A stretch of DNA of 64,000 nt from Mobula hypostoma (GCF_963921235.1 NC_086108.1:93808001-93872000); one strand, 5' to 3'. Positions 5,765-57,169 are shown, counted from the stretch's first letter. Notes: generated by a model from the letters alone, not told the origin. Translations and numbers: made by a program.

Positions 5765-8044
5765 GTCAGTCAGTCAGTGGGTGCTGTCCCGAATCCAGGG
5801 TTGGCGGCTATGCACCTCCATCTTCTTCGATCTCGCGTTCTTTTTCTGGCCTCAGCATAACTCACCCCAGTCCGTTGCCTCACATTATCGTACCAAGTGG
5901 TTCACTGCCTTCCTCTTTCCCTCTCTCCTTCTATCATCCCTTCCAATAACAATTTCTGCAGTCCACCACCTCTTAACAAGTGCCCGGCATATTCCAGCTT
6001 CCTTTTCTGCACATTGTTCAGCAACTCCTTTTCTCCCCTCACTCTCTTCAACACTTCCATATTACTGACCTTCATCACCCATCTAATGTTCTGCATTCTC
6101 CTTAAACACCACATTTCAAAAGCCTCCAGTCGTTGTTGCGCTTCCTTGCATGAGGTCCACGATTCGACTCCATACAACAGACTGCTCCAGACGTAGCATT
6201 TCCAAATTCTACAACGCAGCCCAAAGTCCAACCTGTTGCCACACAGAACGTCACTCAGGCTCCAGAACCTTGATCTTGCAATCTCAATTCCTCATCTAAT
6301 TTCTGTATCACATTTCCCATCCTCTGTGACCATCTGTCCCAAGTACACAAACTTCTTGACTTGCTCAATGCCCATGCCATTAATTTTGATACTGATTTTG
6401 AGAACTTCTTTTTCCGTGATACCACCATCATCTTTGTCTTTGCAGCATTTATTTTCATTCCAAATCGTTCACCTTCAGCATTTATCTCATCTACTATTCT
6501 GAGTAACTCGTCCTCAATCTCAGCTAACAACACTGAATCATCTGCATAGCTCAAGCTGTTCACTAGATACTGTCGTTCACCAGATACTCAAGTTGTTCCC
6601 CAGAACTTCAGGTTGTTCTGGGGATACTGGAAGGAGACAAATTGACTATATTGCAGTGAGGAAACGCTTCAGGAGAAGTATTAGGATGGCCAAGACTTAT
6701 CCAGGCGCCGATATAGGCTCGGATCACAACTCGGTGGTTGTTAGGGTGAAGATTGCACTAAAGACAAAGATTAAGGCTGCAACCAAGAAAGCCAGGCTGG
6801 ATATGGACTTACTGAAGAAGAGCGAGTATAGTGAAAGATTTTCTGCAGCGGTGTAAAACAGGTTTAAAGGACTGAGAGTAGAAGACATGGAGCAGACACC
6901 AGATAACATGTGGTCAAACCTGAAGGACTGTATGCAAATGGCAGCTGAAGAATGTCTCCCCAAAAGAAGGCGCGTAGCTAAACAAGCCTGCATGACGGAT
7001 CACATTCTGAAGCTCATGGAAGAGAGAAGGAAGCACAAGAAGGACACATCTAAGTACAAGGAATTGGACCAACAAATAAGAGCAGAATGTGCAAAAGCTA
7101 AAGGACAACGGTTTATCCAACAGTGTGAAAAGATAAAGACCATGGACATGTTACATCATTCAAGGGACATGCACAGGGAGACTGCAGAGATGACCAACAG
7201 GAACAAGAAACAATCAAGGACTGGCATTATTCAAGACAAGGACGGGAACATACTCTTTGAGAATGACAAGGTGGAAAGTAGATGGATGGAATACATTAGG
7301 GAATTGTACTACGATGCTAGAAATGATCAAGTGAGTGAGAAGAACACGGAAGGTACGGAAATTTTGGTAGTGGAAGTAAGAGCAGCCATTGGAAAGTTAA
7401 AAACTGGTAAAGCTTGTGGTGTAGATGGTATTACAGCCAAAATGTTGAAATGTCTTGGCGACTCGGAGGTTGAGGAGATCACGAGGCTTTGCAATACAAT
7501 CTACTCAACAGAAAAGTGGCCAACAGATTTTGTGGTGTCAGAGTTTGTCATGATCCCAAAGAAAAGTAAGAGCACAAAATGCTCAGACTTTAGAACTATA
7601 AGTCTTATAAGTCATGCCTCCAAGATCTTGTTATTAACACATCTAAGCAGAATAAAAAGGACAGTTCTTAATGAAATTAATGAGTGCCAGAGCGGATTTA
7701 TACCGGGTAAGGGTACCCGTGAAGGGGTTTTCAATTTGTGAATGATTGTGGAACGAGGTCTAGAAAAAAAAAAGACATTTACATCTGCTTCCTGGATTAC
7801 GAAAAAGCTTTTGACCGAGTCAGTCATGAACAGATGGACAATTGCCTGAACTCATTGGGGCTGGATGGGAAAGATGTTTGACTGATTGCGAGTCTGTACT
7901 GGCATCAGAAGGCAGTAATAAGAACTAGTGATGGGAATTCACCGGAAGTTGAGATCCGAAAAGGGGTTCGCCAGGGCTACATTATCCCCCCTTTATTATT
8001 TAACATTTACTCAGAGGTAATCTTCAGGGTGTTGAACAATGAAG
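5765..8044 (-). mobile_element. RTE-clade (BovB-related) LINE with inverted 5' segment
   Basis: Minus segment 5765-6580 encodes SYADD through LLYGVESWT...LEAFEMWCLRRM and ends in an (actg)n tail. Plus segment ~6590-8044 encodes QIDYI...FRTISLISHASKILL...GVRQG...LFNIYSE. TSD ctgg[t/c]tgttca (5754-5764, 8045-8055). Confidence 0.88.
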
Positions 8045-8793
8045 CTGGCTGTTCACCCTCCCACTTAGGAATGCTGAGGACTCAGTCCGAGATATCCCAG
8101 ACCCTGGCATCTGGGAGGCAATATACCATCCCATAGAACCTTCCGTCTGTTGCCCTAACTAACAAATCCCCTATCACCACAGCGTGCCTCTTCTCCCCTC
8201 TTCCTTTTTGCGTCACAGAGGCAGGCTAGTGCCGGAGACTCGCCCACTGTGACTTTCTTCTGTGAGGTCATTCCGCACCCACCCACCCTGATAGCATCCA
8301 AAGTGGTATACCTGCTGTTGAGGGGAATGGCCACAGGAAAACTCTGCACTGGCTCCTTAACCCCTTTCCCCTTCCTGACTCACCCAGTTTCCTGTGTCCT
8401 GCACCTTGGGTGTAATTACCTCTCTGTATGTCCTATCTGTCACCCCCTCAGCCTCCTGAATGATCCGGAGTTCATCCAGTTCCAGCTCCAACTCCTTAAT
8501 GTGGATTGTTAGAAGCTGCAGCTGGATGCACCTCGCAGTTGTAGTCATCAGGGACACTGGAGGTCTCCCTGCCTTCTGCGTCCCACAAGAGGAGCATTCC
8601 ACTATCCTGCCTGGCATCTCTACTGTTCCAGCTGAGCAGATATAAAGAAGAGATGGAAAAAAACCTTGAGCTTTCCTTTCCTTTGCTTTCTCTGACTGGA
8701 GCCGCGAAGAGCTAAAGCCTCAAGATCACCACAGACAGCAGCCCCTGCGCTTGCCCTTGTCTCCCTTTAATTTACTCTTACTAACCAAACCCA

Positions 8794-9095
8794 TGTGGCC
8801 AAGTGGTTAAGGGATTGGACTAGAGACCTGAAGGTCGTGAGTTCGAGCCCCAGCCAAGGCAACGTGTTGTGTCCTTGAGCAAGGCACTTAATCACACATT
8901 ACTCTGTGACGACACTGGTGCCAAGCTGTATGGGTCCTTATGCCCTGCCCTTGGACAACATTGGTGTCGTGTAGAGGGGAGACTTGCAGCATGGGCAACT
9001 GCTGGTCTTCCATACAACCTTGCCCAGGCCTGCGCCCTGGAGAGTGAAGACTTTCCAGGTGCAGATCCATGGTCTCACAAGACTAACGGATGCCT
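8794..9095 (+). mobile_element. tRNA-derived SINE inserted in CR1 5' region
   Basis: A box tggccaagtgg, B box gagttcgagcc, and an imperfect TSD taaccaaaccca/taatcaatccca. Confidence 0.75.
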
Positions 9096-9494
9096 TAATC
9101 AATCCCAAACACCGATTATCCTCAGGCACTGGACCTGATTGAAGTCCCCTCCTCTCCAAACTTCCAATGTCCAGATTGGCCACTGGTCAAAGCTCTTTTT
9201 GACAAGGGGCCAATCTGAGGAGGTAATTGAGCCGGGGGACTCAAGTGAGGTGAGGTGCTGGGCTTAAATACTCAGTGAGGCTCCTTGCCACCAAGAAACA
9301 GAAGTTTGTGGCAAAGAAGCCCATTCTGTCACTCATCTCTGTGCTAGCTTTAGAATTAATGGTTATTGAGGGGAAAGTATTTGTACAGAGGGGTGGATAT
9401 ATGGAACAAGCTGCTGGAAGAGGCATTAGAGGCAGGTACAGTTGCAGTTTTTAAGAGACATTAGGACAGGTTCATGAACACTAAAGATTTAGAG

Positions 9495-9574
9495 CAGGGG
9501 TTTCCAGCCTGGGGTTCACAGACCCCTCGGTTAATTGTAAGGCTCCATTGCATAAAGAAAGTTGGGAACCCCTA
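9495..9574. mobile_element. 80-bp hAT (Charlie/Buster-type) MITE in a CR1 3' UTR
   Basis: Ends caggggtttcc...gggaacccct; 8-bp TSD atttagag/gtttagag. Confidence 0.75.
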
Positions 9575-10364
9575 GTTTAGAGGGATACGACCAAAATCAG
9601 ACAAGTGAGACTGGCTCAGCTAGACACCTTGTTGAGCCAAAGGGCCTGTTTCTGTGCTGTATAATTCTCTGACTGTATGAATTCTTTGGAAAAGCATTTT
9701 TTCAGCTCAAAGCTCTCACTTTTTGTAAGAAACTTGGTAAATTCCCTTATCCTCAAGTACTACAACTAGAGGTCATAGGTTAAGGGTGAAAGGTGAAAAG
9801 TTTAAGGGGAACATGAGAGGAAACTTCTTCACTCAAGAGAGTATCGGGAGTGTGGAATGAGCTGCCAGCTCAAGTGGTGCATGTAAGCTCGATTTCAACG
9901 TTTAAGAGAAATTTTTTAGGGACATGGTTTGTCATGGACTAGATGGGCTGAAGGGCCTGTTTCTGAGCTGTACTTGTCTATGACTCTGTGACTCTACTGA
10001 TATCAGATTCCTGAACAGATCTCATGTATGATAATCTCGTTATAATCTTGTACTTTATCATTTACCTGTACTGGACTTTCTCAGTAGCTTTACTCTGCAT
10101 TATTATTGTTTTACCTTATTCTAGCTCAATGCACTGTGTAATGATATGATCTGTATGAACAGTATTCAAGACAAGCTCTTTAATTTATCTCGGTACATGT
10201 GACAATAATAACCCACTACTCCCTTCGTTAGCTATTTTTCAGATAATCTTTCACCATCTCTTCAGGCAGAGGGTTTTGATTATTTACCAAAACACTCTGC
10301 TAGAAGTCTGTGGGAGCTTGCTGTTTACAAAATGGCTGCCATGCTGCCTGTAACACAACCACAA

Positions 10365-10865
10365 TAAGATACAAGATCAGAATTAAACTATTTGGCCCAC
10401 AAGTTTGCTCTGTTATTTGATCAGGTCTGATTTTTTTTTTATCCCTCTCAACCCATTCTCCTGCCTTCTCCCCATAACCTCTGATGCCCTTACTAATCAA
10501 GAACCTGTCAACCTCTGCTTTAAATATACCCAATGACACGGCCTACGCAGACATCAGTGGCAATGAATTCCACAGATTCTCACCTTCTGGCTGAAGAAAT
10601 TGCTCCTCATTTCTGTCTAAAGTGACATCCTTCTATTCTGAGACTATGTTCTCTAGTCCTAGACTCCTCCACTATAAGAAGCACATCCACTCTATCAAGG
10701 TCTTTCAATATTCAGTAGGTTTCAATGAGATCCCACCCCGCTCTCCCCCATTCTTCTAAACGTCAGAGAGGTCAGACCCAGAGCCATCAAATGCTCCTCA
10801 TAGGTTAACTCATTCACTCCCGGGATCATTCTCATGAACCTCCTCTGAACCCTCTCCAGTGCACC
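10365..10865 (-). mobile_element. CR1 3' fragment
   Basis: Encodes LERVQRRFMRMIPG and GIFKAEVDRFLISKGIRGYG; CR1 3' UTR follows. Confidence 0.85.
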
Positions 10866-11085
10866 ATTGTTGGCCGAAAACAGTTCAAGACCCCATGTAC
10901 AGGGGCCCAAGAAAAACACAACTATTTCCATAAACCCCGAGCAAAAAGTCTCCTCACCTACCTTCTGTATTTGGTTTTACTGACATTTTTGCATTTATCT
11001 GCCCTCTCTCACACTACCTGGCATTTGACCAAGGTACCCTGGAGTAGGGAATGCTGGGATCACAGCCAGATGCAGGAAGACTCAC

Positions 11086-11189
11086 CGTGGTCCAGCCAAC
11101 CTGTGGGCCAAGGTCCTTGAAGTAGAAGGTTGCGGTAGTTCCAACTGGGAGGGTCTGTAGCACTTCCTCATCCCTGACACATTTACCCT
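11086..11189 (-). CDS. TECR: TECR-family exon 4, 104 nt ((K)GKCVRDEEVLQTLPVGTTATFYFKDLGPQVGWTT)
   Basis: Acceptor ttatcttgcag and donor gtgagt. The peptide matches TECR KGKSLKDEDVLQKLPVGTTATLYFRDLGAQISWVT. Exon lengths 195+52+45+104=396 nt stay in frame. Confidence 0.96.
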
Positions 11190-11574
11190 CTGCAAGATAA
11201 AGATCAAAGAGATTAAAGTTTAAAGATTAGCTTTTATCTGTTACATGTACATTTAAACTTACAGTGAAATGCGCCTTTTTGTGTTGATGATGCATTGGGG
11301 CAGCCTGCAAGCGTTGCCATACTAACATAGCAAATCCATAACTTACTAACACCAACACATACGTCCTCGGTATGTGGGAGGAAAACAGGGCAATCAGAGG
11401 AAACCCATGTAGTCACGGGGAGAACGTACAAACTGCTTAGAGGCAGCGGCGGGAATTGAACGCTAATGAGCTGCCCTGTGTCAATAGTGGTACGAGATGG
11501 TCAGGTATATTGGCACTTGGGACCAAACTGCATCCATTCAGAAGGGACCTTACATTTGGTCCCTTCTTATTCGT

Positions 11575-14900: not shown

Positions 14901-16291
14901 AGTGCGGAATGGCACCAGTATGTTCTGGGGGAGATGGAATAGGCAATAAATTCTGCCTCGGTGGCAACGTCCAGATCCTGAAAATGAAATAAAAGAATTC
15001 AAGGGTGACTTTAGACGGCAAATTGGACCTCGCTCTTTCAAAGATTTGGGCTGCTGTTATTTTGGCAAGGGATCTGAGTGGGGTCTGATTTGCCCCGACG
15101 CACTGGACGGGGATTGAAACTGTCGCTCACTCCATATTAGTGTTAGCCCCGTGATCAGGATCACATCCACCGGCCGCTGAACATGCCGTCACAAGCAGAT
15201 TCTTTCAGCAGAGCACATTTCTGAGATTCCAGAACTATTAAGGTAGATAAACAGAGCGTGTTATCTGCAAGTCAGTAAGGCACCACATGCAATCCCTTCA
15301 TCTGACTCTGTAAAAGGAAACCGGGTTCTTGCCCTCGCCCAGTGAAGTAAGTTGCGTGCCAGTGGCAGTGAAACTGTGGCGTCTTCGCATCAGTCAGAAA
15401 CCTGCCAGTACTGGGAATCTGAAAAGAAGTGTTTCTAGAACTTGCTTCAATGCTCAAGCTTTGATTCTATCTGCCTCGGCTCAAATAAAGGAGATTTACG
15501 CAACTAGGACGGATTGGAGGATATCACTACGCCCACACCTCCTACAATCGCTCCTCTGCGGATCGTCACCTCGCCATTGTGGAGAGGCTTGTGGGTTCCT
15601 GACATCCCGAGAGCGATGCCCTCCGGGGTTTAGCCGCCTGGAGCTTAGCTCCAAGTCGGGTTACCCACAGGGGCATTCCACAGGTGAGGCTGGAGGAAGA
15701 TGACGGCACACCACAACGACAGTGAAAATGCAGGAAGGCTGCAGCAGTGAAGAATCCCCAGTCATCGTGCACCCTGTGCCACTAGACCCTGACCCCAAAC
15801 TGTCAAACACTTTGTGGTGGCTGCCCCTGGATCAGCCTCCCCATGTTAAATAAAACCAGCCACAGGCGTTCTCCTCTGAGGGAGTAACCCTTGGGAGAAC
15901 ATCCGTACTTAACTCGAGAGGTCGCACATCTACAACCAGAAACACCAGTGATGGCCAAAGTAGAATTAGAAAAGCACAGAAGGCGGCTATTTGGCCCATG
16001 GATAATGTGCTGGCCTTTTAAAGAGCTTCTCATGTAGTTCCTCTCTCCTTCCCTTTCCTACATTTTGGAATGTTCTTCTCTTCAGCCATTACCGATTCCC
16101 TTTTGAAACTTGCTATTCGATGTTCCCCAAATCCACTTCAATGGAACGCACTTTCAGAGTGAGGGTAGAGGCAGATACATTAAGCAGATTTAGGAGACTC
16201 TTAGATAGACACGTGGATGAAAGAAATATGGGGGGGAATAAACAGTCGAACTCTAGGGCCGAGACTCAGCCCAAAACATGACTCATTATTC

Positions 16292-18035
16292 AACACTCAC
16301 AACACGCTGGAGGAACTCAGCAGGTCGGGCAGCATCCGTGGAAACGATGAGTCGCCGTTTCGGGTCGGAACCCTTCGTCAGGACTGAAGAGGGAAGGGGC
16401 AGAGGCCTTATAAAGAAGGTGGGGGAGGGGAGGGTTGGAAGGAGAAGGCTGGTAGGTTCAGTTGAAAAACCAGTAATTTGAAAGACAAAGGGGTGGAGGA
16501 GGGGAAGCAGGGAGGTGATAGGCAGGAAAACAATGGGTAGTAGAAGGAGGTGGAATCATGAGGGAGGTGATAGGCAGCTGGCGGAGGGGGTAAAGTGAAA
16601 TAGGGATAGAGGAAGGGAAGGGGAGGGAATTACCCGAAGTTGGAGAATTCTATATTCATACCAAGTGGCTGGAGACTACCTAGACGGTATATGAGGTGTT
16701 GCTCCTCCAACCTGAGTTTAGCCTCATCATGGCAGTAGAGGAGGCCATGTATGGACATACCTAAATGGGAATGGGAAGCAGAGTTGAAGTGGGTGGCTAC
16801 CGGGAGATCCTCTCTGTTATGGCGGACCGAGTGGAGGTGCTCGATGAAGCGGTCCCCCAATCTGCGTCAGGTTTCACTGATATCTCGGACACTTCTCTCT
16901 TCTTTCTCGATGTCTCGGTCTCGATCTCTGGAGACAGACTGTCCACCGACATCTTCTACAAGCCCACTGACTCTTATAACTACCTCAACTATACCTCTTC
17001 CCACCCCGCCACATGCAAAAATGTCATTCCCACAACAGGGACAGAGTTCCCCTTGTCCTCACCTACCACCCCACCAGCCTCCGGATCCAGCACATTATCC
17101 TCCGCAACTTCCGCCACCTACAACAGGACCCCACCACTAAGCACATCTTTCCCTCTCCACCTTCCGCAGGGATCGATCCCTCCACAACTCCTTTATCCAC
17201 ACGTCCCTCCCCACGGATCTCCCACCCGGCACTTATCCCTGTAAGCGTAAGTGCTACACCTTTCCCTACACCTCCTCTCTTGCCACCATTCAGGGCCCCA
17301 AACAGTCCTTCTGGGTGAGGCAACACTTCACTTGAGAGTCTGTTGGGGTCATCTATTGCATCCAGTGCTCCTGGTGCGGCCTCCTCTACATCGGTGAAAC
17401 CCGACGCAGATTGGGGGACCGCTTCGTCGAGCACCTCCGCTCCGTCTGCCACAACAGACAGGATCTCCCAGTAGCCACCCACTTCAACTCTGCTTCCCAC
17501 TCCCATTCAGATATGTCCATACATGGCCTCCTCTACTGCCATGATGAGGCTAAACTCAGGTTGGAGGAGCAACACCTCATATACCATCTAGGTAGTCTCC
17601 AGCCCCTTGGTATGAACATAGAATTCTCCAACTTCCAGTAATTCCCTCCCCCTCCCTTCTCCTATCCCTATTTCACTCTGCCCCCTCCCCCAGCTGCCTA
17701 TCACCTCCCTCATGGTTCCGCCTCCTTCTACTACCTGTTATGTTTTCCCCTATTCTTTCTTCACCTTTCCTGCCTATCACCTCCCTGCCTCCCTTCCCCC
17801 ACTGCTTTATCTTTCCCCTTACTGGTTTTTCAACTGGACCTACCAGCCTTCTCCTTCCCACCCTCCCCCCACCTTCTTTATAGGACCTCTGCCCCTTCCC
17901 TCTACAGTCCTGACGAAGGGTTCCGGCCCGAAACGTCGACTCATCGTTTCCACGGATGCTGCCCGACCTGCTGAGTTCCTCCAGCGTGTTGTGAGTGTTG
18001 CTTTAATCCCAGCATCTGCAGAGCATTTTGTGTTT
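16292..18035 (+). mobile_element. Penelope-like element with inverted pLTR (fold-back) architecture
   Basis: Minus arm 16292-16883 mirrors plus arm 17388-18000. The centre encodes FLDVSVSISGDRLSTDIFYKPTDS and GIY-YIG (VIYCIQCSWCGLLYIGET). 14-bp TSD atgactcattattc (16278-16291, 18036-18049). Confidence 0.93.
17906..17941 (+). ncRNA. Minimal type I hammerhead ribozyme motif in PLE pLTR
   Basis: AGTC-CTGACGA-A-GGG-ttccgg-CCC-GAAA-CGTC-GACT: stem I AGTC/GACT, core CUGANGA and GAAA, stem II GGG/CCC, palindromic ACGU in place of stem III, GUC cleavage triplet. Confidence 0.75.
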
Positions 18036-26538: not shown

Positions 26539-27093
26539 CTGAGTGAGAGGCAAATGGAATATGTTCAGTATTTGTTCATTACTGAAATCTGTTCAGTGCT
26601 AAATAAAATACATTCAGTAACACTGCTTACGAGAAACCCCATGAGGGAAAGAGTGTGGCTTTTACAACTGCAGTTTTATGAGGAAGCATTTAAGTGAGCT
26701 GCACATGACCCAGGAATGCACTTTTACCCACCAAGGATATAAATATGTGTTAATATGACATTTTAATCCCAGGCAGCCTCACAGCACTGAAAGTGGCTCC
26801 CATTGCCTTGCAACAAAGTCATTTACGAAAGCAATGACTCCGAACATGATTCTTTATTCACCTTACATTCGTTGGCCGTCATTAAAAAGTTATTCTTCAA
26901 AGCTATTGGGAATTTTACATGAGATAAAATTTAGCGGGATCCTCAATAAATGCGCCACCTATTAAAGACTGCATGAGTTAGATGCTTGAAGCTGCAAAGC
27001 TGAGTATTTTTTTAAAAGAAAACCTTAATAACGTAAGAGTTTTTTAAGCTACAATGGTACCCAAGACACATTTTTAGACGTTTAAGCTCTCAC

Positions 27094-27288
27094 CTTGTCC
27101 AGGAAGCAGAGTTGTTCTTTGTTCTTGGCATCTAGGATTTCCACCTCAAAGAAAACAAATGATTTTACTTTTTTAGCTGAGGTTGAGGAATCTCTTGACT
27201 GCAGTGTAACATTAGGAGTAACTGTTTTCTTTTTGAAACTAGACGCAGTGAATACAGTAGATAAGTCGATGGTCTGCAGTGATGCCAT
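27094..27288 (-). CDS. TECR: TECR-family enoyl-CoA reductase, first coding exon (MASLQTID...FFEVEILDAKNKEQLCFLDK)
   Basis: EVEILDAKNKEQLCFLDK matches the TECR N-terminal motif EVEILDAKTREKLCFLDK. It is followed by donor GTGAGA (phase 0). The ATG at 27288 has a strong context (aaaacaATGG); an in-frame upstream ATG exists at 27384. Paralog identity (TECR vs tecrl2-type) is not resolved. Confidence 0.88.
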
Positions 27289-29935: not shown

Positions 29936-30212
29936 GCGGTACACACACATCAAACACCGACCTTCTACCAATACACTGGTCCCTGTATAATACCCGCAGT
30001 ACACACACATCAAACTCGACCTCCTACCAATACACTGGTCCCTGTACAATACCCGCAGTACACACACATCAAACACCGACCTCCTGCCAATACACTGGTC
30101 CCTGTACAATACCCGCAGTTCACACACATTAAACACTGACCTCCTGCCAATACACTGGTCTCTGTACAATACCCGCAGTACACACACATCAAACACCGAC
30201 CTCCTGCCAATA
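29936..30212. repeat. ~60-bp minisatellite, ~4.5 copies
   Basis: Unit acacacacatcaaacaccgacctcctgccaatacactggtccctgtacaatacccgcagt is repeated in tandem. Confidence 0.95.
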
Positions 30213-30450
30213 TACAATCTCTGGCTTTACTGCAGTGTTACATTTCAGATTCAGATTCATTTCTCACACGTACATGGAAACAGACAGTGAAATGTGTTAA
30301 CCAACAACACACCTGAGGGTGTGCTGCGGACAGCCCACAAATGCCACCACACATTGTTGTGCTAACACGGCATGCCTATGAACAACACAGAACACAACAA
30401 GTAACAAAACAACAACAGCAAAATAAGCCCCTTTCTTCCCTCCCACTCAT

Positions 30451-34070: not shown

Positions 34071-35732
34071 GTAAAACCAATTAACCGACATCCTTGGAAT
34101 GTGGGAGAATTCCAAAGCACCTGGAGAAAACCCACACAGTCATGGGGAGACCATCCAAACACCTTACAGACTGTGACAAAATTGAGCCGGGTCACTGGTG
34201 TCGTGATAGCACTATGCTACTGTCTTTCCTCTGGCAACATTACAGTCCCATACACTGCACTGTCATGAATCTATTACTGTTATAGAAACACAACTATGTC
34301 AAACTTATCACCTGTCACATGTATGATGGTGTAATTCTTAATCCAAAGGAGCAGAGATATAATAAAATTAAAGTTTTAGGTGGACAAAAATAAAGCAGTA
34401 TGTAACCGCTTCAGATGTGACACACCAGGTCACTGCTGGCTAGTGTCGTTTTCCTTAGAGAATGGCTCTTCAAGGGCACACTCACTCCTCACCTTGTCCC
34501 TTCGCTGCACCCCCTCTCACCTCTCCCTTGGGCCTCTACACCCTGGCCACTCCCCCACAGCTTTCTGCTCTCCCCCACCCTCATCCCCTCCTGCACCTCG
34601 TACCCCCCCTCGAAATTGCGATGAGTATGGATAAGGTGGTGTGATGACAGTCTTTTCCCTAGGGGAGGAGAAACTGAAACCAGAGGGCGCAAGTTTGAAG
34701 TGAGAGGGGAAAGATTTGAGGGGAACCTGGGGGACAAGTTTTTCACACAGAGGGTGGTGGTTGTATGGAACAAATCTGCCAGAGGAAGTGTAGAGGTGGC
34801 TGGAATTACAATGCTTAATTACAATTTGTACAGGTGCACAGATAGGAAAGGTTAGAGAGATATGGTCCAAATATAAGAAAATGGGACCAGCTCAAGTAAG
34901 CACCTTGGTTCGTAAGGACAAGTTGGAACAAGCGTCCTGTTTCCACACTGACTTACTCTGTTACACATGTATATAACTGCCATCTCAGGTGATGGATGGT
35001 CCTATGAGCAGCTGGTGCGTTTAACAAGTTCGGGTTATGCAACCACTGACAATCTCTGAAGAGTATAGATATTGACTGGGGTCACCCATCTTGTAAAGAC
35101 ACTGCCCAGACAAGACAATGGCAAACCACTCCTGTAGAAAAATTTTCCAAAGAATCATCATGCTCATGGAAAGATCACAATCGCCCACGTCATACGGCAC
35201 GGCACGTAATGAATGAATGACAACTCCCATCTAGTGTCAGCTTGATCCTTCCTGGCGTCCATGTCTATGCTTTGCAGTACAGAAGCTACAAGTCAGATGC
35301 CAGGGCACCTGAACGTCCCTCCAGCTCTGGATTCAGCACCGAGTCCAGCGGCTGAGCTCAGACCAATTGCTGATGAGAACCACTCAACCACGAAGCTGTG
35401 TCACGCGTCAGGGATGGAAATAGTCAATCCAAATATAACCCGAAGAGAAACAGATTCACTTTGAGTTTAAACCAGAAACCAAACAGACCAAAAGTTGACT
35501 TGACAAAGAATTTTGGAGTTTGGCGCCTTAGCAGCTGACAGCATGCCAACAGTGGCGCAGAAGTGAACTAGGATAAAGGTCACAGAGCTTAGGAGGTCCT
35601 TACATTTACAGGGGGGAGACCTGCCACGAGTGTGAGGGAATAGAAAAGTTGCTAAACAATATCACTGACAGAGTCCTCAACTTGGGCGTCAAGTTTCAGT
35701 TGATCTATTCGACATTCTGTAAAAGGTTTGTG

Positions 35733-37252
35733 GATCTCAACTCATTACAAGTCTGTAAAACCAACCTCACTCAGTATCTCCACTCGTTACAAGCCTGCAA
35801 AACCGGCCTCACTCAGTAACTCAACTCATTACAAGTCTGTAAAACCAGCCTCACTCGGTATCTCCTCATTACGAGTCTGTAAAACCGACCTCACTCAGTA
35901 TCTCCTCATTACGAGTCTGTAAAACCGGCCTCACTCAGTATCTCCTCATTACGAGTCTGTAAAACCGGCCTCACTCAGTAACTCAACTCATTACAAGTCC
36001 GTAAAACCAGCCTCACTCGGTATCTCCTCATTACGAATCTGTAAAACCAGCCTCACTCAATATCTCAACTAATTACGAGTCTGTAAAACCAGCCTCACTC
36101 AGTATCTCCTCATTACGAGTCTGTAAAACCAACCTCACTCAGTATCTCCTCATTACGAGTCTGTAAAACCGGCCTCACTCAGTAACTCCTCATTACGAGT
36201 CCGTAAAACCAGCCTCACTCGGTATCTCCTCATTACGAGTCTGTAAAACCAGCCTCACTCTGTATCTCAACTAATTACGAGTCTGTAAAACCAGCCTCAC
36301 TCAGTATCTCCTCATTACGAGTCTGTAAAACCAGCCTCACTCAGTATGAGTCTGTAAAACCAGCCTCACTCAGTATCTCAACTCATTACGAGTCTGTAAA
36401 ACCAGCCTCACTCGGTATCTCCTCATTACGAATCTGTAAAACCAGCCTCACTCAATATCTCAACTAATTACGAGTCTGTAAAACCAGCCTCACTCAGTAT
36501 CTCCTCATTACGAGTCTGTAAAACCAACCTCACTCAGTATCTCCTCATTACGAGTCTGTAAAACCGGCCTCACTCAGTAACTCGACTCATTACAAGTCCG
36601 TAAAACCAGCCTCACTCGGTATCTCCTCATTACGAGTCTGTAAAACCAGCCTCACTCTGTATCTCAACTAATTACGAGTCTGTAAAACCAGCCTCACTCA
36701 GTATCTCCTCATTACGAGTCTGTAAAACCAGCCTCACTCAGTATGAGTCTGTAAAACCAGCCTCACTCAGTATCTCAACTCATTACGAGTCTGTAAAACC
36801 AGCCTCACTCAGTTTCTCAACTCATTATGAGTCTGTAAAACCAGCCTCACTCAGTATCTCAACTAATTACGAGTCTGTAAAACGAGCCTCACTCAGTATC
36901 TCCTCATTACGAGTCTGTAAAACCAGCCTCACTCAGTATCTCCTCATTACAAGTCTGTAAAACCAGCCTCACTCAGTATCTCAACTCATTACGAGTCTGT
37001 AAAACCAACCTCACTCAGTATCTCCTCATTACGAGTCTGTAAAACCAGCCTCACTCAGTATCTCCTCATTACGAGTCTGTAAAATCAGCCTCACTCAGTA
37101 TCTCCTCATTACGAGTCTGTAAAACCAGCCTCACTCAGTATCTCCTCATTACGAGTCTGTAAAACCAGCCTCACTCAGTATCTCCTCATTACGAGTCTGT
37201 AAAACCAGCCTCACTCAGTATCTCAACTCATTACAAGCCTGTAAAACTAGCC
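35733..37252. repeat. 40/42-bp minisatellite, ~37 units, with higher-order duplication
   Basis: Unit gagtctgtaaaaccagcctcactcagtatctc(aa)ctcattac. Diagnostic variants recur ~395-397 bp apart. Confidence 0.97.
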
Positions 37253-38157
37253 TTTTCTGGATTAGACTTCACATTCTATATCTCAGAATTGTCTTCTCGA
37301 AATAAGGATAAAAATTCATTTTTTTCAAAACGACCTGATGTGAGGAGTGATTTAGAGTTGTGAGAATTGTGTTATGTTGCAATTTCTTAAGTGCTTTTTG
37401 ACAGACATTAAGAGAAGTGTTAAAGCAAGCTGCTTGTGGCGATTGCTACCTCCATTTAATTGTTTGATTTATTAATTGACTTAAAACAATTTATTAATTG
37501 TTTTCAATGGACCTGTGCTATCGTGGTTCTAAAACCCTGCCGTTCTATTGCAATGGAGTGATGTGGATCAGCAACGGAGTGACATTCCGGGAGGAAACTG
37601 CAGCCAATTTCCAAGATAGTCAAAGTCAAGGCCGAGTAACTGTCATTGTCATCGGCACAAGTACATGTATGTGCACACACAATGTAAAACTTGCTTGCAG
37701 CAGTATCACAGACACGTAGCGTCAGATACACAGGAGAAACATAAATTACGCACAGTTTTTGCAAGAAGATAAACACAACTAAAATGAACGAAAAGACAAA
37801 GTCCATTGTAGTGCAGAGTGGTCAAAGTCATCATACTGTTGTTATACTGTGTTAGTGATTAGGATTGTGCAGGCTAGTTCAGGAGCCAGATGGATGAAGG
37901 GAAATAGTCGTTCGTAAACCTAGTGTTGTGGCACTTTAGGCATTTACACCCCCTACTCGATGGTAGCTGCAAGATGGCCCGGAGAGGTGAGGTCTTTGAT
38001 GATGGATGTTTCCTTCTTGAGGCAATGTCTTATGTAGATACTACTGACGATGGGGAGGGACGTGTCGTGGTGTATTGGGTGAATCCACTACTGTATGCAA
38101 CTTCATATTGCCAAACCAGCCCACGATGTAGCCAGTCAGAAGACACCCAACAGTGAC

Positions 38158-51829: not shown

Positions 51830-52500
51830 TGTCCACACTGGTTCAGGAGCCTGACGGGTGAAGGGAAATAACTGTTCCTGAAGCTGGTGCTGTGGGGCCT
51901 AAAGCTCCTGTGCCTCCTCCCTGATGATAGCAGCTTTCCTATGGCAGCTTTCTATGTAGATATGCTCAATGGCAGCAGGGACTTCTCCTGTGATGAACTG
52001 CACTGCATCCATTACTTTTTCTAAGCTTTTCCATACTGGGGCACTGATATTTCCGTACCAAACCTTTGTCAGAGTTTTAGATGACGTGCCGAGTCTGCAC
52101 AAACATCTAAGAAAGTTATTGTCATACCAAGCCATGATGCATCTGGATAGGATGCTTTCAGTGGTGCATTGCCAAAAATTGGCGAGGGGCAAAGGGGACA
52201 TGCCAAATTTCTTCAGCCTCTTGAGGAAGATAGAGGTTCTGGTGAGCTTTCTTGGCTGTGGCCTCTACATGATTGGACTGGGCCAGGCTACTGGAGATGT
52301 TCACATCTAGGAACGTGAAACTCTCAACCTCAGCAAACCAGGAGATTGTGCACTGCCCTCCTTCCTAAAGTCAATGAGCAGCTCTCTTGTTTTGCTGACA
52401 TTGAGGGAAAGGTTGTTGTCATGACACCATCTCATTAGCATCTCTATCTCCTTCCTGTACTCTGACTCGTTGCTATTTAAGATATGACCCACTATAGTGG
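51830..52500 (-). mobile_element. Rex1/Babar-type LINE fragments
   Basis: Encodes ESEYRKEIEMLMRWCHDNNLSLNVSKTRELLIDFRK and LANFWQCTTESILSRCIMAWY. Confidence 0.8.
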
Positions 52501-52536
52501 CATCTTGTGTACTTAATATATCAGTAACATTTGAGT

Positions 52537-55500
52537 GGGGGTGGGGGGGAGGTCTGGGCCTGACGTCCCGCTCACCCAGGGATAGTGTACGTGCAATACA
52601 TCGCCTCTCCTTTCCCGGTGTAGCAGATTGCTGCGTGGTCACTGTCTGGCCTGCTAGGCAGGAGGCCACTGCAAATGGCCTCCCCTACATTACTGTATCC
52701 ATAGCAACACCTTCTCGCCGGTGCCCCCCCCCGTTTCCAGCGAGCTTGCTACGTCATGGCGCGACCGAGTGTCCGGCGGTATAACTGGATGGGTCGGCTG
52801 GGCTCATTAGCCTTGGTTGGCAGCCAGCCTAGGAGAAGGACAACTCTGAATCCAAACCCGGGCAGGTGGGGCTTGTCAGCCTTGTCAGATCATCCACCTC
52901 GGAGCAGGACACTCCGACATAAATCCTACGACCCGAGGTCCTCACCGTCACATCTATATCACAACACTGTCACTGTTCATCTATGGAGATGAACGCCGGG
53001 TGTAAAGAGTGGGACCAGTACTGTGCACACTGCACTCCATCTAAAATACCATTGCGCAGGCTGAAGGACACACCCACGTCTGCGACCATCCTCCCCGAGC
53101 TCATCAAGCTCTGCAGAGATGGGAAAGGGGTGAAAAAGGCAGGTGGAAGATGACACTGGAAGCCGCAGTTCCGATCCTGCATGCAGGCGGTTCAGGTGTA
53201 TCAGTCGTCTCATGTTGACCCCCGAGACGACAATATCATTCAGCAGCACCCTGAACGACCAAGCAGCCTTCTCTAGAGACAGCACTGCTTGCTCCACACG
53301 GAGAGGGGCCTAGAATAGGTGGCCCAACCAAAGCTCGTTTCCATTTCCCCCAGTTGGCTAGCCGCGGTCGACGGGCATCCTCAAATGCAGTCGAACAACA
53401 ACAAAGATGAAAAAGTACACACCTGTCTCACTAGGAGTGCAAGGACTAAAGCTCGCATGCTGGGACATCAGAACCATGCTCTACACAGCAGGTAGTGGTC
53501 GCCCAGAACAACGATCCGGTCTAGTTGCACATGAACTTTCAAGACTGAATGTCGACATCGCTGCTCTCAGTGAAGTCTGCTTCCCAGAGTAAAGCAACCT
53601 TCAAGAACATGGCGCCAGCTACACCCTCTACTGGTCAGGCAAGCCAGAGACTGAGAGACGCCTTTCTGGCGTTGGCTTTATGGTCAGGAACTCTATTGCC
53701 TCCAAACTTGAAAAACTGCCAATGGGTCACCTCCAACCACATCATCTCCATGCACCTCCCATTTCGATCTAAACAGCGTGCCACACTCTTCAGCGTGTAT
53801 GCCCCTGCTCTTCAGACGGATCCTGCAGAAAAGGACAAGTTTTACACTGATCTGTGCAACCTCGTGCGGAACACCCCTGCAGACGACAAGGTCTTCATCC
53901 TTGGCGACTTCAATGCCAGACTAGGCCAAGATTCAGAAGCCTGGAAAGAAGTACTTGGCAAACATGATGTTGGAAACTGCAATGACAACGGGCGCCTTCT
54001 GTTAGAGTTTTGTGTGGAGCAGCAACTCACCATCACCGACACCATTTTCCAACAGAAAGACAGTCTGAAGACAACCTGGATGCATCCTCGGTCCAAGCAT
54101 TGGCACCTCATAGACTACATCTTGGTGCGCCAGAGAGACCTTCGGGATGTTTTACTCACCCCAGTGATGCCCAGCGCAGAGTGTCATATGGACCATCGTA
54201 TTGTGTGCTGCAAACTCAGTCTCTATTTCAAACCCAAGCCAAAGAGAGGAGACGCTCCAAGGAAGAAGTTTCAGGTTGGCAACCTCCAGTCAGCTGAAGT
54301 GAAAGCTGACTTTCAGACGAATCTTCACTCGAGGCTTCAGGATCCTGGTTTCCCCACAGACTCCTCTCCCAAAGTGCTTTGGGAACACCTAAAAACCACC
54401 ATCCTGCAAACCTCTGAAGAAGTCCTCGGGTTTTCCACAAAGAAGAACAAGGACTGGTTCAATGAAAACAACCAGGAGATCCAAGAATTGCTGGCGAAGA
54501 AGAGATCCACCCACCAGGCACACCTTGCTCAGCCGTCTTGTCCTGATAAGAAAGCAGCCTTTCGCCTTGTATGCAGCAACCTCCAGCACAAGTTTCGAGA
54601 GATTCAGACGTGTGGTGGACCAACGTCGCAAAGAGAACTCAGCTTTGCGCAGACACCGGTGACTACAGAGGGTTTTATGAAGCCCTGAGAGCGGTGTACG
54701 GCCCTTCACACCAGGTCCAGAGTCCCTTGCGCAGTGCAGATGGTCAGGCGCTCTTCACAGACAAGGCGTCCACCCTGAACCGGTCCTCGGAACATTTCCA
54801 GAATCTCTTCAGCGCCAACCACAAGGTCCAAGACTCAGCAATTCATCACATCCCACAGCAGCCAGAGAAAACAGAACTGGACAAGATTCCAACCCTAGAA
54901 GAGATAGTCAAGGCCATAGAGCAGCTGAAAAGTGGCAAGGCAGCGGGAGTTGATGGAATCCCACTTGAGATTTGGAAGCATGGGGGCCCAGCGTTACACA
55001 CCAAACTCCACGAGTTCTTTGTCTGCTGCTGGGAGCAAGGTAAACTTCCACAGGACTTCCGTGATACAGTCATCATCGCCCTGTGTAAGAACAAGGGAGA
55101 AAAGTCCGACTGCTCCAACTACCAGGGGATAACTCTTCTCTCTATTGCAGGAAAAATCCTCGCAAGAGTACTCCTGAACAGATTGGTGCCCATCATTGCA
55201 GAAGAACACCTCCCAGAGAGCCAGTGTGGCTTCAGAGCCAACAGGAGCACCACCAACATGGTATTTGTTCTCAGGCAGCTCCAAGAGAAACGTAGGAAAC
55301 AGAACAAGGGATTGTCGACCTTACCAAAGCATTCGACACTGTGAGCAGGGAAGGTCTGTGGTAAATCAAGGAACGACTGGGATGCCCCCCAAAGTTCCTC
55401 AGCATGGTCATCCAGCTACATGAAGATCAGAGTGGCCAGGTCAGACACAACAATGACCTCTCAGAACCCTTCCCAATAGGCAATGGAGTATAGCAAGGCT

Positions 55501-56673
55501 GCATCCTCACGCCGACTCTCTTCACCATCTTCTTCAGCAAGATGCTCGAAAGGGCCACAGAAGACCTTGATGACAAGGATGGTGTTTACATCCGATACCG
55601 CACCGATGGCAGCCTGTTCAACCTGAGGTGACTACAGTCCCACACCAAGACATTGGAGCAACTCATCCGAGAGCTACTCTTCGCTGACGATGCTGCCCTT
55701 GTTGCCCACATGGAGACAGCCCTGCAGCGTATGACATCCTGCTTCGCAGAGGCTGCCGAGCTCTTCGGGCTGGAAGTCAGCTTGAAGAAGACAGAAGTTC
55801 TCCATCAGCCCGCACCTCAGGAAGATTACCACCCTCCCCTCATCACCATCGGTGAGGTAGAGCTGAAGACAGTCCACCAGTTCAGCTACCTGGGGTGCAC
55901 CATCTCGTCAGATGCCAAGATCAACAAAGAGATTGACAACAGACCGGCAAAGGCAAACAGGGCATTCGGCAGGCTGTACAAAAGAGTCTGGAACAACATG
56001 CATTTGAAGAAAGGCACAAAGATCAGCGTGTACAGAGCCGTTGTACTGACTACCCTCCTGTACGGCTCCGAGTCGTGTGTCACCTACCATCACCACCTAC
56101 GACTCCTTGAGTGTTTCCACCAGCGCTGTCACCGCACCATCCTCAACATCCACTGGAGTGACTTCGTCACCAACATCGAAGACCTCGAACAGGCGGAGAT
56201 CACCAGCATTGAGGCCATGTTGGTGAAGATGCAGCTGCGCTGGGCAGGGCATGTCTCCAGGATGGAGGATCATCACCTGCCCAAGATTGTGATGTATGGC
56301 AAACCCTCCACTGGCCACCATGGCAGAGGGACACCGAAGAAGAGGTACAAGGACTCTGTGAAGAAATCCCTTGGTGCCTGTCACATTGACCATCGCCAGT
56401 GGTCTAATCTAGCCTCCGATTGCGAGGCCTGGTGACACACCATTCACCAGTCTGTCTCCTCCTTTGAGAACGCATGCAGGGCTGGCATTGAGGACAAAAG
56501 GAGGAGAAAGAACTGTGACACAGCAGCACCAAACCCAGAACAGAATTTCCCTTGCAGCCGCTGTGGCCAGACCTGCCTGTCCCGTACTGGCCTCGTCAGC
56601 CACCAGCAAGCCTACAGAAGACATGGGCAGCCCCTTCCTAAATCTCCATTCACGAAGCCAAGCCATGATGATG
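52537..56673 (+). mobile_element. Full-length RTE-clade LINE (4137 bp), AviRTE-like, with disabled ORF
   Basis: 11-bp TSD aacatttgagt (52526-52536, 56674-56684). RTE 5' UTR motif ctaggagaaggacaactctgaatccaaacc. APE (LACWDIRTM...GDFNAR...HLIDYIL), RT (NYQGITLLSIAGK, ESQCGFR, LLFADD), C-terminal C2H2-like CSRCGQTC...SH and a (tga)n tail. Several stops and frameshifts. Confidence 0.93.
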
Positions 56674-57169
56674 AACATTTGAGTAATATTGCAAATATAT
56701 TGTTTGATTAACCGTTCTTTGCTTGTGTACATAATTAATTACAGGTTTTATTCAGAAAGTATGTGAATAGCATATGTCACAATGCCATCAGGTCATATGT
56801 ACGCACCTCACTAAAGTGAAAAAACAAAGAGCGGACACATTATCCCCAAGCTCCCATCTTTTTCTTTCAATTCTTGGAGTTACAAAACAAAGCAGAATCA
56901 TCTACAAATATGTGGATAGCGTTAGGGCAGAATCTAGCATGTGTTAAGTGAGTGAATTCCTGCCAATCTCTATCCTGCTTGACTGTCCATACAATCTGTT
57001 TAAGATACTTTGCAATGTTTTAATAAAGGGTTTTTGTTAGCTGGAAATAAGAATTATAGAATAGTATTCCAAACTAATTAAAACCCTGACTTCAAAAGTT
57101 GGCCTCGATCACCTTTGAATATAACGACAGGTCACATTTATGTAACATATTTACATGCACTATAATTAT

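Follow-up and report, generated by a model that had tools for sequence, protein, structure and literature searches.

The stretch of DNA analysed here, called the window below, comprises 64,000 nucleotides of Mobula hypostoma (GCF_963921235.1, NC_086108.1:93808001–93872000). It carries one copy of an RTE-clade LINE at 52537–56673 on the plus strand (4,137 bases), bracketed by an exact 11-bp target-site duplication (TSD). The parts of the insertion are listed by position; AviRTE is the bird–nematode element with which the copy is compared throughout.

52526..52536, plus strand: left copy of the TSD, AACATTTGAGT, with the length and initial A typical of RTE-clade TSDs
52537..52790, plus strand: distal 5′ UTR module, resembling the 5′ ends of two much more distant RTE loci but not that of AviRTE
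52791..52950, plus strand: conserved mid-UTR block whose two halves loosely resemble each other; homologue of the AviRTE 5′ UTR
53095..53400, plus strand: proximal leader, conserved above the synonymous level and probably a structured RNA
53362..53730, plus strand: ORF piece 1, endonuclease N-terminus; frame open from 53362, stop at 53590
53732..54607, plus strand: ORF piece 2, remainder of the AP endonuclease and linker (alignment, Pfam)
54613..55311, plus strand: ORF piece 3, linker followed by the first part of the reverse transcriptase (alignment, Pfam)
55314..56630, plus strand: ORF piece 4, reverse transcriptase core (FADD) and C-terminal region, with 4 stops
56553..56615, plus strand: C-terminal CCHC-type zinc-finger motif, last ligand altered; Pfam match weak and below cut-off
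56638..56673, plus strand: short 3′ end, a conserved motif (56654–56665) followed by about 3 TGA units
56674..56684, plus strand: right copy of the TSD, AACATTTGAGT; its first A may equally finish the last TGA

Several other features share the window. About 25 kb from the RTE copy, a TECR-like host gene occupies the minus strand. One of its exons, at 27088–27150 (−), has a GT donor end and resembles the beginning of the ubiquitin-like domain of TECR (PF21696; E 6.9e-06, slightly below cut-off). A far more distant LINE at 5875–8049, 24–30% identical to the relative P0001, has its C-terminal part at 5875–6572 (−) and an earlier part at 6641–8049 (+), and looks like a 5′-inverted insertion. Two long inverted copies (16291–16881 and 17390–18000), 88% identical, flank a short ORF; we take this unit to resemble a Penelope-type element, and 16291–18000 gave no Pfam match. 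Tandem-repeat arrays occupy 35731–37253 and 29936–30215.

Structure, decay and family of the RTE copy

Pfam domains, ORF layout, and reverse-transcriptase phylogeny agree in identifying an RTE-clade LINE, as had been proposed from the sequence alone. A single ORF combines an AP endonuclease with a reverse transcriptase, and no ORF1 is present. Exo_endo_phos_2 scored above the Pfam cut-off, RVT_1 above it in the C-terminal piece and slightly below it in the middle piece, and the C2H2 match at the C-terminus was weak and below it. The very short 3′ UTR, the microsatellite end, and the 11-bp TSD are likewise RTE traits; TSDs of animal RTE LINEs are mostly 10–12 bp, typically with an initial A (PMC6007223).

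Intact 1,059-residue relatives are 77–78% identical to the copy over their full length, and one such relative aligns to it in four pieces across three frameshifts (near 53731, 54608–54612, and 55311–55314). Because these frameshifts are accompanied by five in-frame stops (53590, 55362, 55491, 55629, and 56433) and by an altered last zinc ligand—Tyr here versus a Cys codon in five aligned relatives—the copy is full-length yet dead. The sequence-only reading of a complete element is borne out in extent, TSD, 5′ UTR, endonuclease, reverse transcriptase, zinc-finger-like motif, and tail; it leaves out that the copy is not intact.

As to the boundaries, matches of at least 11 bases occurred in 21 of 20,000 random stretch pairs drawn from the window, and at the 5′ boundary a second family copy, seen in read contigs in a different flank, starts matching at 52538. 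No second copy of the same family was found in the 64-kb window itself. On its left, the target site adjoins a fragment of another LINE at 51899–52500 (−), with RT-like frames and no Pfam match.

The target is a short AT-rich repeat (52500–52536 and 56685–56720), present at very high depth in all four sequencing runs examined in depth; no other copy was seen within the 64-kb window, and a pattern search gave 0 matches. At 56677, 416–513 loose ends resembling the left flank were counted across the four runs. The right flank extends over 269 bases with 0 differences in run X1 and shows 10 differences in 268 in X5, which makes the organisms behind these two runs the host or its close kin. Joints that skip the element, found in all four runs, were considered as empty alleles and rejected: the flank is an abundant repeat, and their short sides measure 22–29 letters. 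Since other copies of this very abundant repeat carry the target once in read contigs, the joints are probably paralogous empty sites, and as such support target duplication, not insertion polymorphism.

Beyond the window, 20 of the 23 runs listed—seven organisms plus skin metagenomes—hold 12–41% of the element's words; the small shares in X9–X13 and X15–X19 are not used as evidence. The family is multi-copy in all four runs examined in depth, with 8,104–11,313 contigs in each and all 30 bins covered. Read depth in X1 climbs from about 750–2,500 over the endonuclease to about 10,000 at the 3′ end, which shows that sister copies are 5′-truncated in the usual LINE manner. Relative to the run majority, the copy differs at 214, 227, 225, and 297 places in 4,651 bases, a divergence of about 5% from its own multi-copy family. 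A>G or T>C changes account for 116 of the 214 differing places in X1, and CpG observed/expected is 0.45 in the copy versus 0.59–0.67 in three relatives; from this excess in the change spectrum and the low CpG ratio, we infer that decay fell largely on CpG sites.

Composition of the 5′ UTR and the 3′ end

The 5′ UTR combines segments with different affinities. Its first 250 bases show no match, by eye, to AviRTE 5′ ends. Of 80 loci, only two score clearly higher than the shuffle maximum against the distal module: L020 (175 of 231 aligned bases) and L070 (154 of 210). The segment shared at 73–76% lies at L020:281–514 and L070:567–784, in loci that are 47–49% identical to P0001; the L020 ORF has 44% amino acid identity to the Mobula copy, with fourfold sites saturated.

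The mid-UTR block matches AviRTE at about 66 of 81 positions in its best part (about 81%, by eye) and is matched too by L020, L001, L069, L071, and L072. An RTE-wide UTR domain that also occurs in Ceph-SINEs has been described (PMC5786205), and the mid-UTR block probably corresponds to it.

The proximal leader follows the close relatives, at 78–84% identity to seven of ten aligned loci and 58–71% to the other three (10 of the 80 loci entered the leader and ATG comparisons). It is probably a structured RNA: 22 of 73 predicted pairs show two-sided change, counted over related rows and with no independent control. For this copy alone, the leader folds no better than shuffled sequences (z 0.43). 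The ATG at 53407 is absent from all ten aligned relatives; the first shared ATG, at 53476, lies downstream of the first conserved endonuclease motif.

Because the distal module matches the distant L020 and L070 while the proximal leader tracks close relatives, the 5′ UTR looks mosaic. We read this as a 5′ module that may have been swapped in from a distant RTE lineage; the rival account is an ancestral 5′ module, strongly conserved here and lost from other lineages. Two observations in the reads touch the same region. In run X5, two contigs pass directly from the 5′ UTR, at about 53095, into the 3′ end, at about 56550 (window positions 53093–56555), and run X20 has a depth peak at 52768–52923; bipartite non-autonomous derivatives or SINEs of the Mobula RTE family are a possible source of both.

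At the opposite end, the published AviRTE 3′ primer site is matched at 19 of 19 positions. An exact match occurs in no fetched locus, and L015 carries the site with 1 mismatch. L001 has the identical 12-base tail motif, which is common to non-bird loci; because it is shared in this way, the 3′ motif and (TGA)n tail do not, in the loci compared, define AviRTE.

Placement among aquatic RTEs and route into rays

Protein relationships were summarized in four trees: a quick tree (P0066 left out), a tree of 103 of 183 rows selected by length and identity, and two trees of 37 hand-picked rows, over 440 C-terminal and 400 N-terminal columns, respectively. The model was LG+G4, with no mixture model, and the bootstrap of the N-terminal tree was not fully settled. 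Suboscine bird proteins (Manacus, Pitangus, Willisornis, Lepidothrix, Pseudopipra, and Myiozetetes) served as the AviRTE stand-in; one agrees by eye with the available published Manacus AviRTE consensus. No nematode protein was among the matches listed.

The trees have a star-like backbone, on which amphioxus, shrimp, sea urchin, mollusc, medaka, carp, electric ray, bird, and ENA/JGI elements are separated by short distances. Bird proteins matching the available published AviRTE sequence share one supported clade with the Mobula copy. Within that clade, the bird rows form a clade of their own that excludes the copy in all four trees, with support of 100/100 in the two careful ones; the bird-clade stem measures 0.16–0.24 over the four trees and 0.16–0.21 in the two careful ones, where the copy sits in an open fork. 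Its nearest rows by path are non-bird in every tree.

Pairwise identities give a similar picture. The best matches are ENA/JGI proteins (77–79% amino acid identity); amphioxus and shrimp proteins reach 71–76% and bird copies 64–73%. Expressed as counts, 777–822 of about 1,043 residues are identical to P0001–P0005 and P0009, versus 64–74% for 11 bird-type rows, figures that decay of the Mobula copy and of the bird copies lowers. Since every identity of the Mobula copy is depressed in this way, the distance between its active ancestor and AviRTE was probably about the same as for the best other aquatic elements.

A second set of ray elements lies elsewhere on the backbone. A 99/97 clade of Narcine, carp, and shrimp rows excludes the Mobula copy. 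This arrangement suggests two separate RTE lineages in rays, though an AU test does not reject joining the copy with Narcine (p 0.42).

Horizontal entry into the ray lineage appears likely, because amino acid identity to amphioxus and shrimp remains 71–76% despite decay, fourfold sites are unsaturated, and the Narcine elements fall in a separate clade. Across the 14 of 80 loci used for the fourfold-site comparison, identity was 44–55% in nine of ten close loci (37% in L002) versus about 28% at saturation, where the hosts of loci with unsaturated sites may be closer kin than assumed.

Cartilaginous fishes evolve slowly, which counts toward a competing account: the family would be an ancient RTE lineage passed down vertically in chondrichthyans, with slow evolution plus purifying selection accounting for its likeness to invertebrate elements. 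The presence of the family in seven organisms and skin metagenomes would fit such a lineage, as would the occurrence of RTEs of the same radiation in Narcine. Vertical descent nevertheless has to accommodate a tree in which bird, carp, shrimp, and amphioxus elements and two separate ray lineages are interleaved over short internal distances, together with fourfold sites that are unsaturated against most close loci, and we judge it unlikely.

Our preferred reading, which we hold with considerable confidence, is that the locus preserves a full-length dead copy of a multi-copy RTE family, that this family is one branch of a star-like radiation in which AviRTE is another, and that it most likely goes back to an old horizontal transfer. 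Non-LTR elements are established to insert by target-primed reverse transcription, in which the protein works on the RNA that encodes it. Here, an ancestor encoding one endonuclease–reverse transcriptase protein would have inserted by this route into an abundant host repeat: the target would have been nicked, the (TGA)n RNA end primed, and the 11-bp duplication left behind. The family would be a branch of a shallow, star-like RTE radiation spanning amphioxus, shrimp, sea urchins, molluscs, teleosts, electric ray, and suboscine birds, with AviRTE as a different branch of that radiation. Old horizontal transfer from a marine pool would have been followed by multiplication with 5′ truncation and then by decay.

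Searches for a vehicle and for further relatives added little. No viral vector was seen, 66 IMG/VR pattern matches including 0 relatives, which is no proof of absence; the ESM Atlas returned generic RT-like clusters only. In titles and the opening lines of abstracts, no such element in rays or sharks is evident in the literature, and the family may already be in Repbase or Dfam. "Callorhinchus" has 0 matches in the available text of supplement 7 of Suh et al. (PMC4844689); the supplements of that paper may hold closer neighbours.

RTE transfers of this kind are widely reported (PMC7070016, PMC6036668, PMC6542046, 10.1101/2020.02.27.968685, PMC5055719), and the available text of another study describes no general aquatic excess of transfers (10.1101/2024.12.18.629015). 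Suh et al. (2016, PMC4844689) had found AviRTE itself to group among RTEs whose hosts are aquatic or semi-aquatic. Aquatic RTE transfer and the aquatic relatives of AviRTE are thus already known, and the Mobula family is a new member of the radiation. It adds one vertebrate lineage, what looks like a second ray lineage beside Narcine, and a mosaic-looking 5′ UTR.

Relationship to AviRTE and other known elements

The sequence-only reading had singled out peptides and a tail resembling AviRTE, and both resemblances are real: the peptides, which sit in the ORF at 53549–54688, are present in published AviRTE proteins, and the 3′ primer agrees throughout (available text of PMC4844689). The same peptides vary hardly at all among 14 non-bird relatives, and on these alignments peptides and tail are clade-wide rather than AviRTE-specific. 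The further suggestion that the copy is a close relative extending the bird–nematode network of AviRTE is not sustained as stated. Reverse-transcriptase phylogeny, the check proposed with that suggestion, groups the bird rows at 100/100 with the Mobula copy outside, as it is in all four trees; few bird residues are present, the distal 5′ UTR differs, and amphioxus, shrimp, and ENA/JGI elements are as close as birds or closer.

Site-level comparison points the same way. At the 45 of 725 columns that separate 11 bird-type from 16 aquatic rows, some of them suboscine-specific rather than AviRTE-wide, the copy agrees with the aquatic rows at 39, with the bird rows at 2, and with neither at 4; the 16 aquatic rows themselves carry 0–5 bird-state residues. 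Over the first 373 residues, identity to one available AviRTE consensus is about 72% (about 270 of 373, by eye) versus 76% for the best ENA/JGI relatives, which puts AviRTE only about 4 points below the best aquatic rows. Judged on these sequence comparisons, the Mobula copy is not AviRTE.

It could still be the nearest known relative, or sister, of AviRTE and point to a marine vertebrate-associated source for the bird–nematode element. AU tests allow the copy to be grouped with birds (p 0.379 for the C-terminal and 0.064 for the N-terminal alignment), and in the quick tree a set of 17 rows that holds the copy, the birds, and an amphioxus group has an SH-aLRT of 90. The 3′ primer, exact in none of the fetched loci, and the mid-UTR block with its by-eye likeness of about 81% would also suit a sister relationship. 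Each of these meets an opposing observation: the 2 of 45 bird residues lie inside the range of the aquatic rows, the nearest rows are non-bird in all four trees, L015 has the same primer with its single mismatch and L001 the same 12-base motif, and the distal 5′ UTR is unlike AviRTE. We consider a sister relationship quite improbable. If a consensus-level tree made the family AviRTE's sister, it would help locate the origin of the bird–nematode element.

The broader combination, in which the family is AviRTE's closest relative, entered rays by horizontal transfer, and acquired its distal 5′ UTR from a far RTE lineage, is very doubtful; if true, it would imply a marine origin for the bird–nematode element and promoter swapping within a horizontally spreading LINE radiation.

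Shared peptides, tail, and overall layout would suit membership of AviRTE itself, as a subfamily that moved in the very transfers that gave rise to the bird and filarial elements, but this reading has a negligible probability. AviRTE subfamilies reach 83–99% DNA identity over a length that takes in the UTRs (Suh et al. 2016, PMC4844689). The Mobula copy falls outside that range as judged by eye and by primers: the other four of five AviRTE primers or motifs need at least 5 mismatches, and protein identity is only about 72% by eye. The 100/100 bird clade also excludes it.

The preferred placement, as one branch of the radiation beside AviRTE, can be set against four known systems. RTE-Snek and RTE-Kret of sea snakes are marine RTEs that were transferred into vertebrates and for which no close donor was found, the best matches being 75–85% (10.1101/2020.02.27.968685); their likeness to the Mobula element is one of description. 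The Narcine bancroftii RTEs (P0247, P0260, and P0295) belong to the same radiation and also have a ray host, but they are 67–68% identical to the copy and group with carp elements at 83/95 inside the 99/97 clade.

The aquatic RTEs of Branchiostoma, Penaeus, Lytechinus, Diadema, Oryzias, Cirrhinus, Labeo, and the ENA/JGI sets are members of the same radiation at 67–79% amino acid identity and share the tail motif and proximal leader of the Mobula copy. None is a supported sister; since none exceeds about 80% amino acid identity over long stretches, no donor can be named among them.

AviRTE matches the copy in general design (PMC4844689): both are RTE-clade elements of about 4 kb with one ORF of about 3.2 kb, a long 5′ UTR, and a very short 3′ UTR, and both have a homologous mid-UTR block, an identical 3′ primer site, and copies broken by frameshifts and stops. 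They differ in protein sequence (about 72% amino acid identity, by eye), in the first 250 bases, and in length (about 4,000 versus 4,137 bases here), and the Mobula copy stands outside the bird clade, with its bird-specific residues missing.
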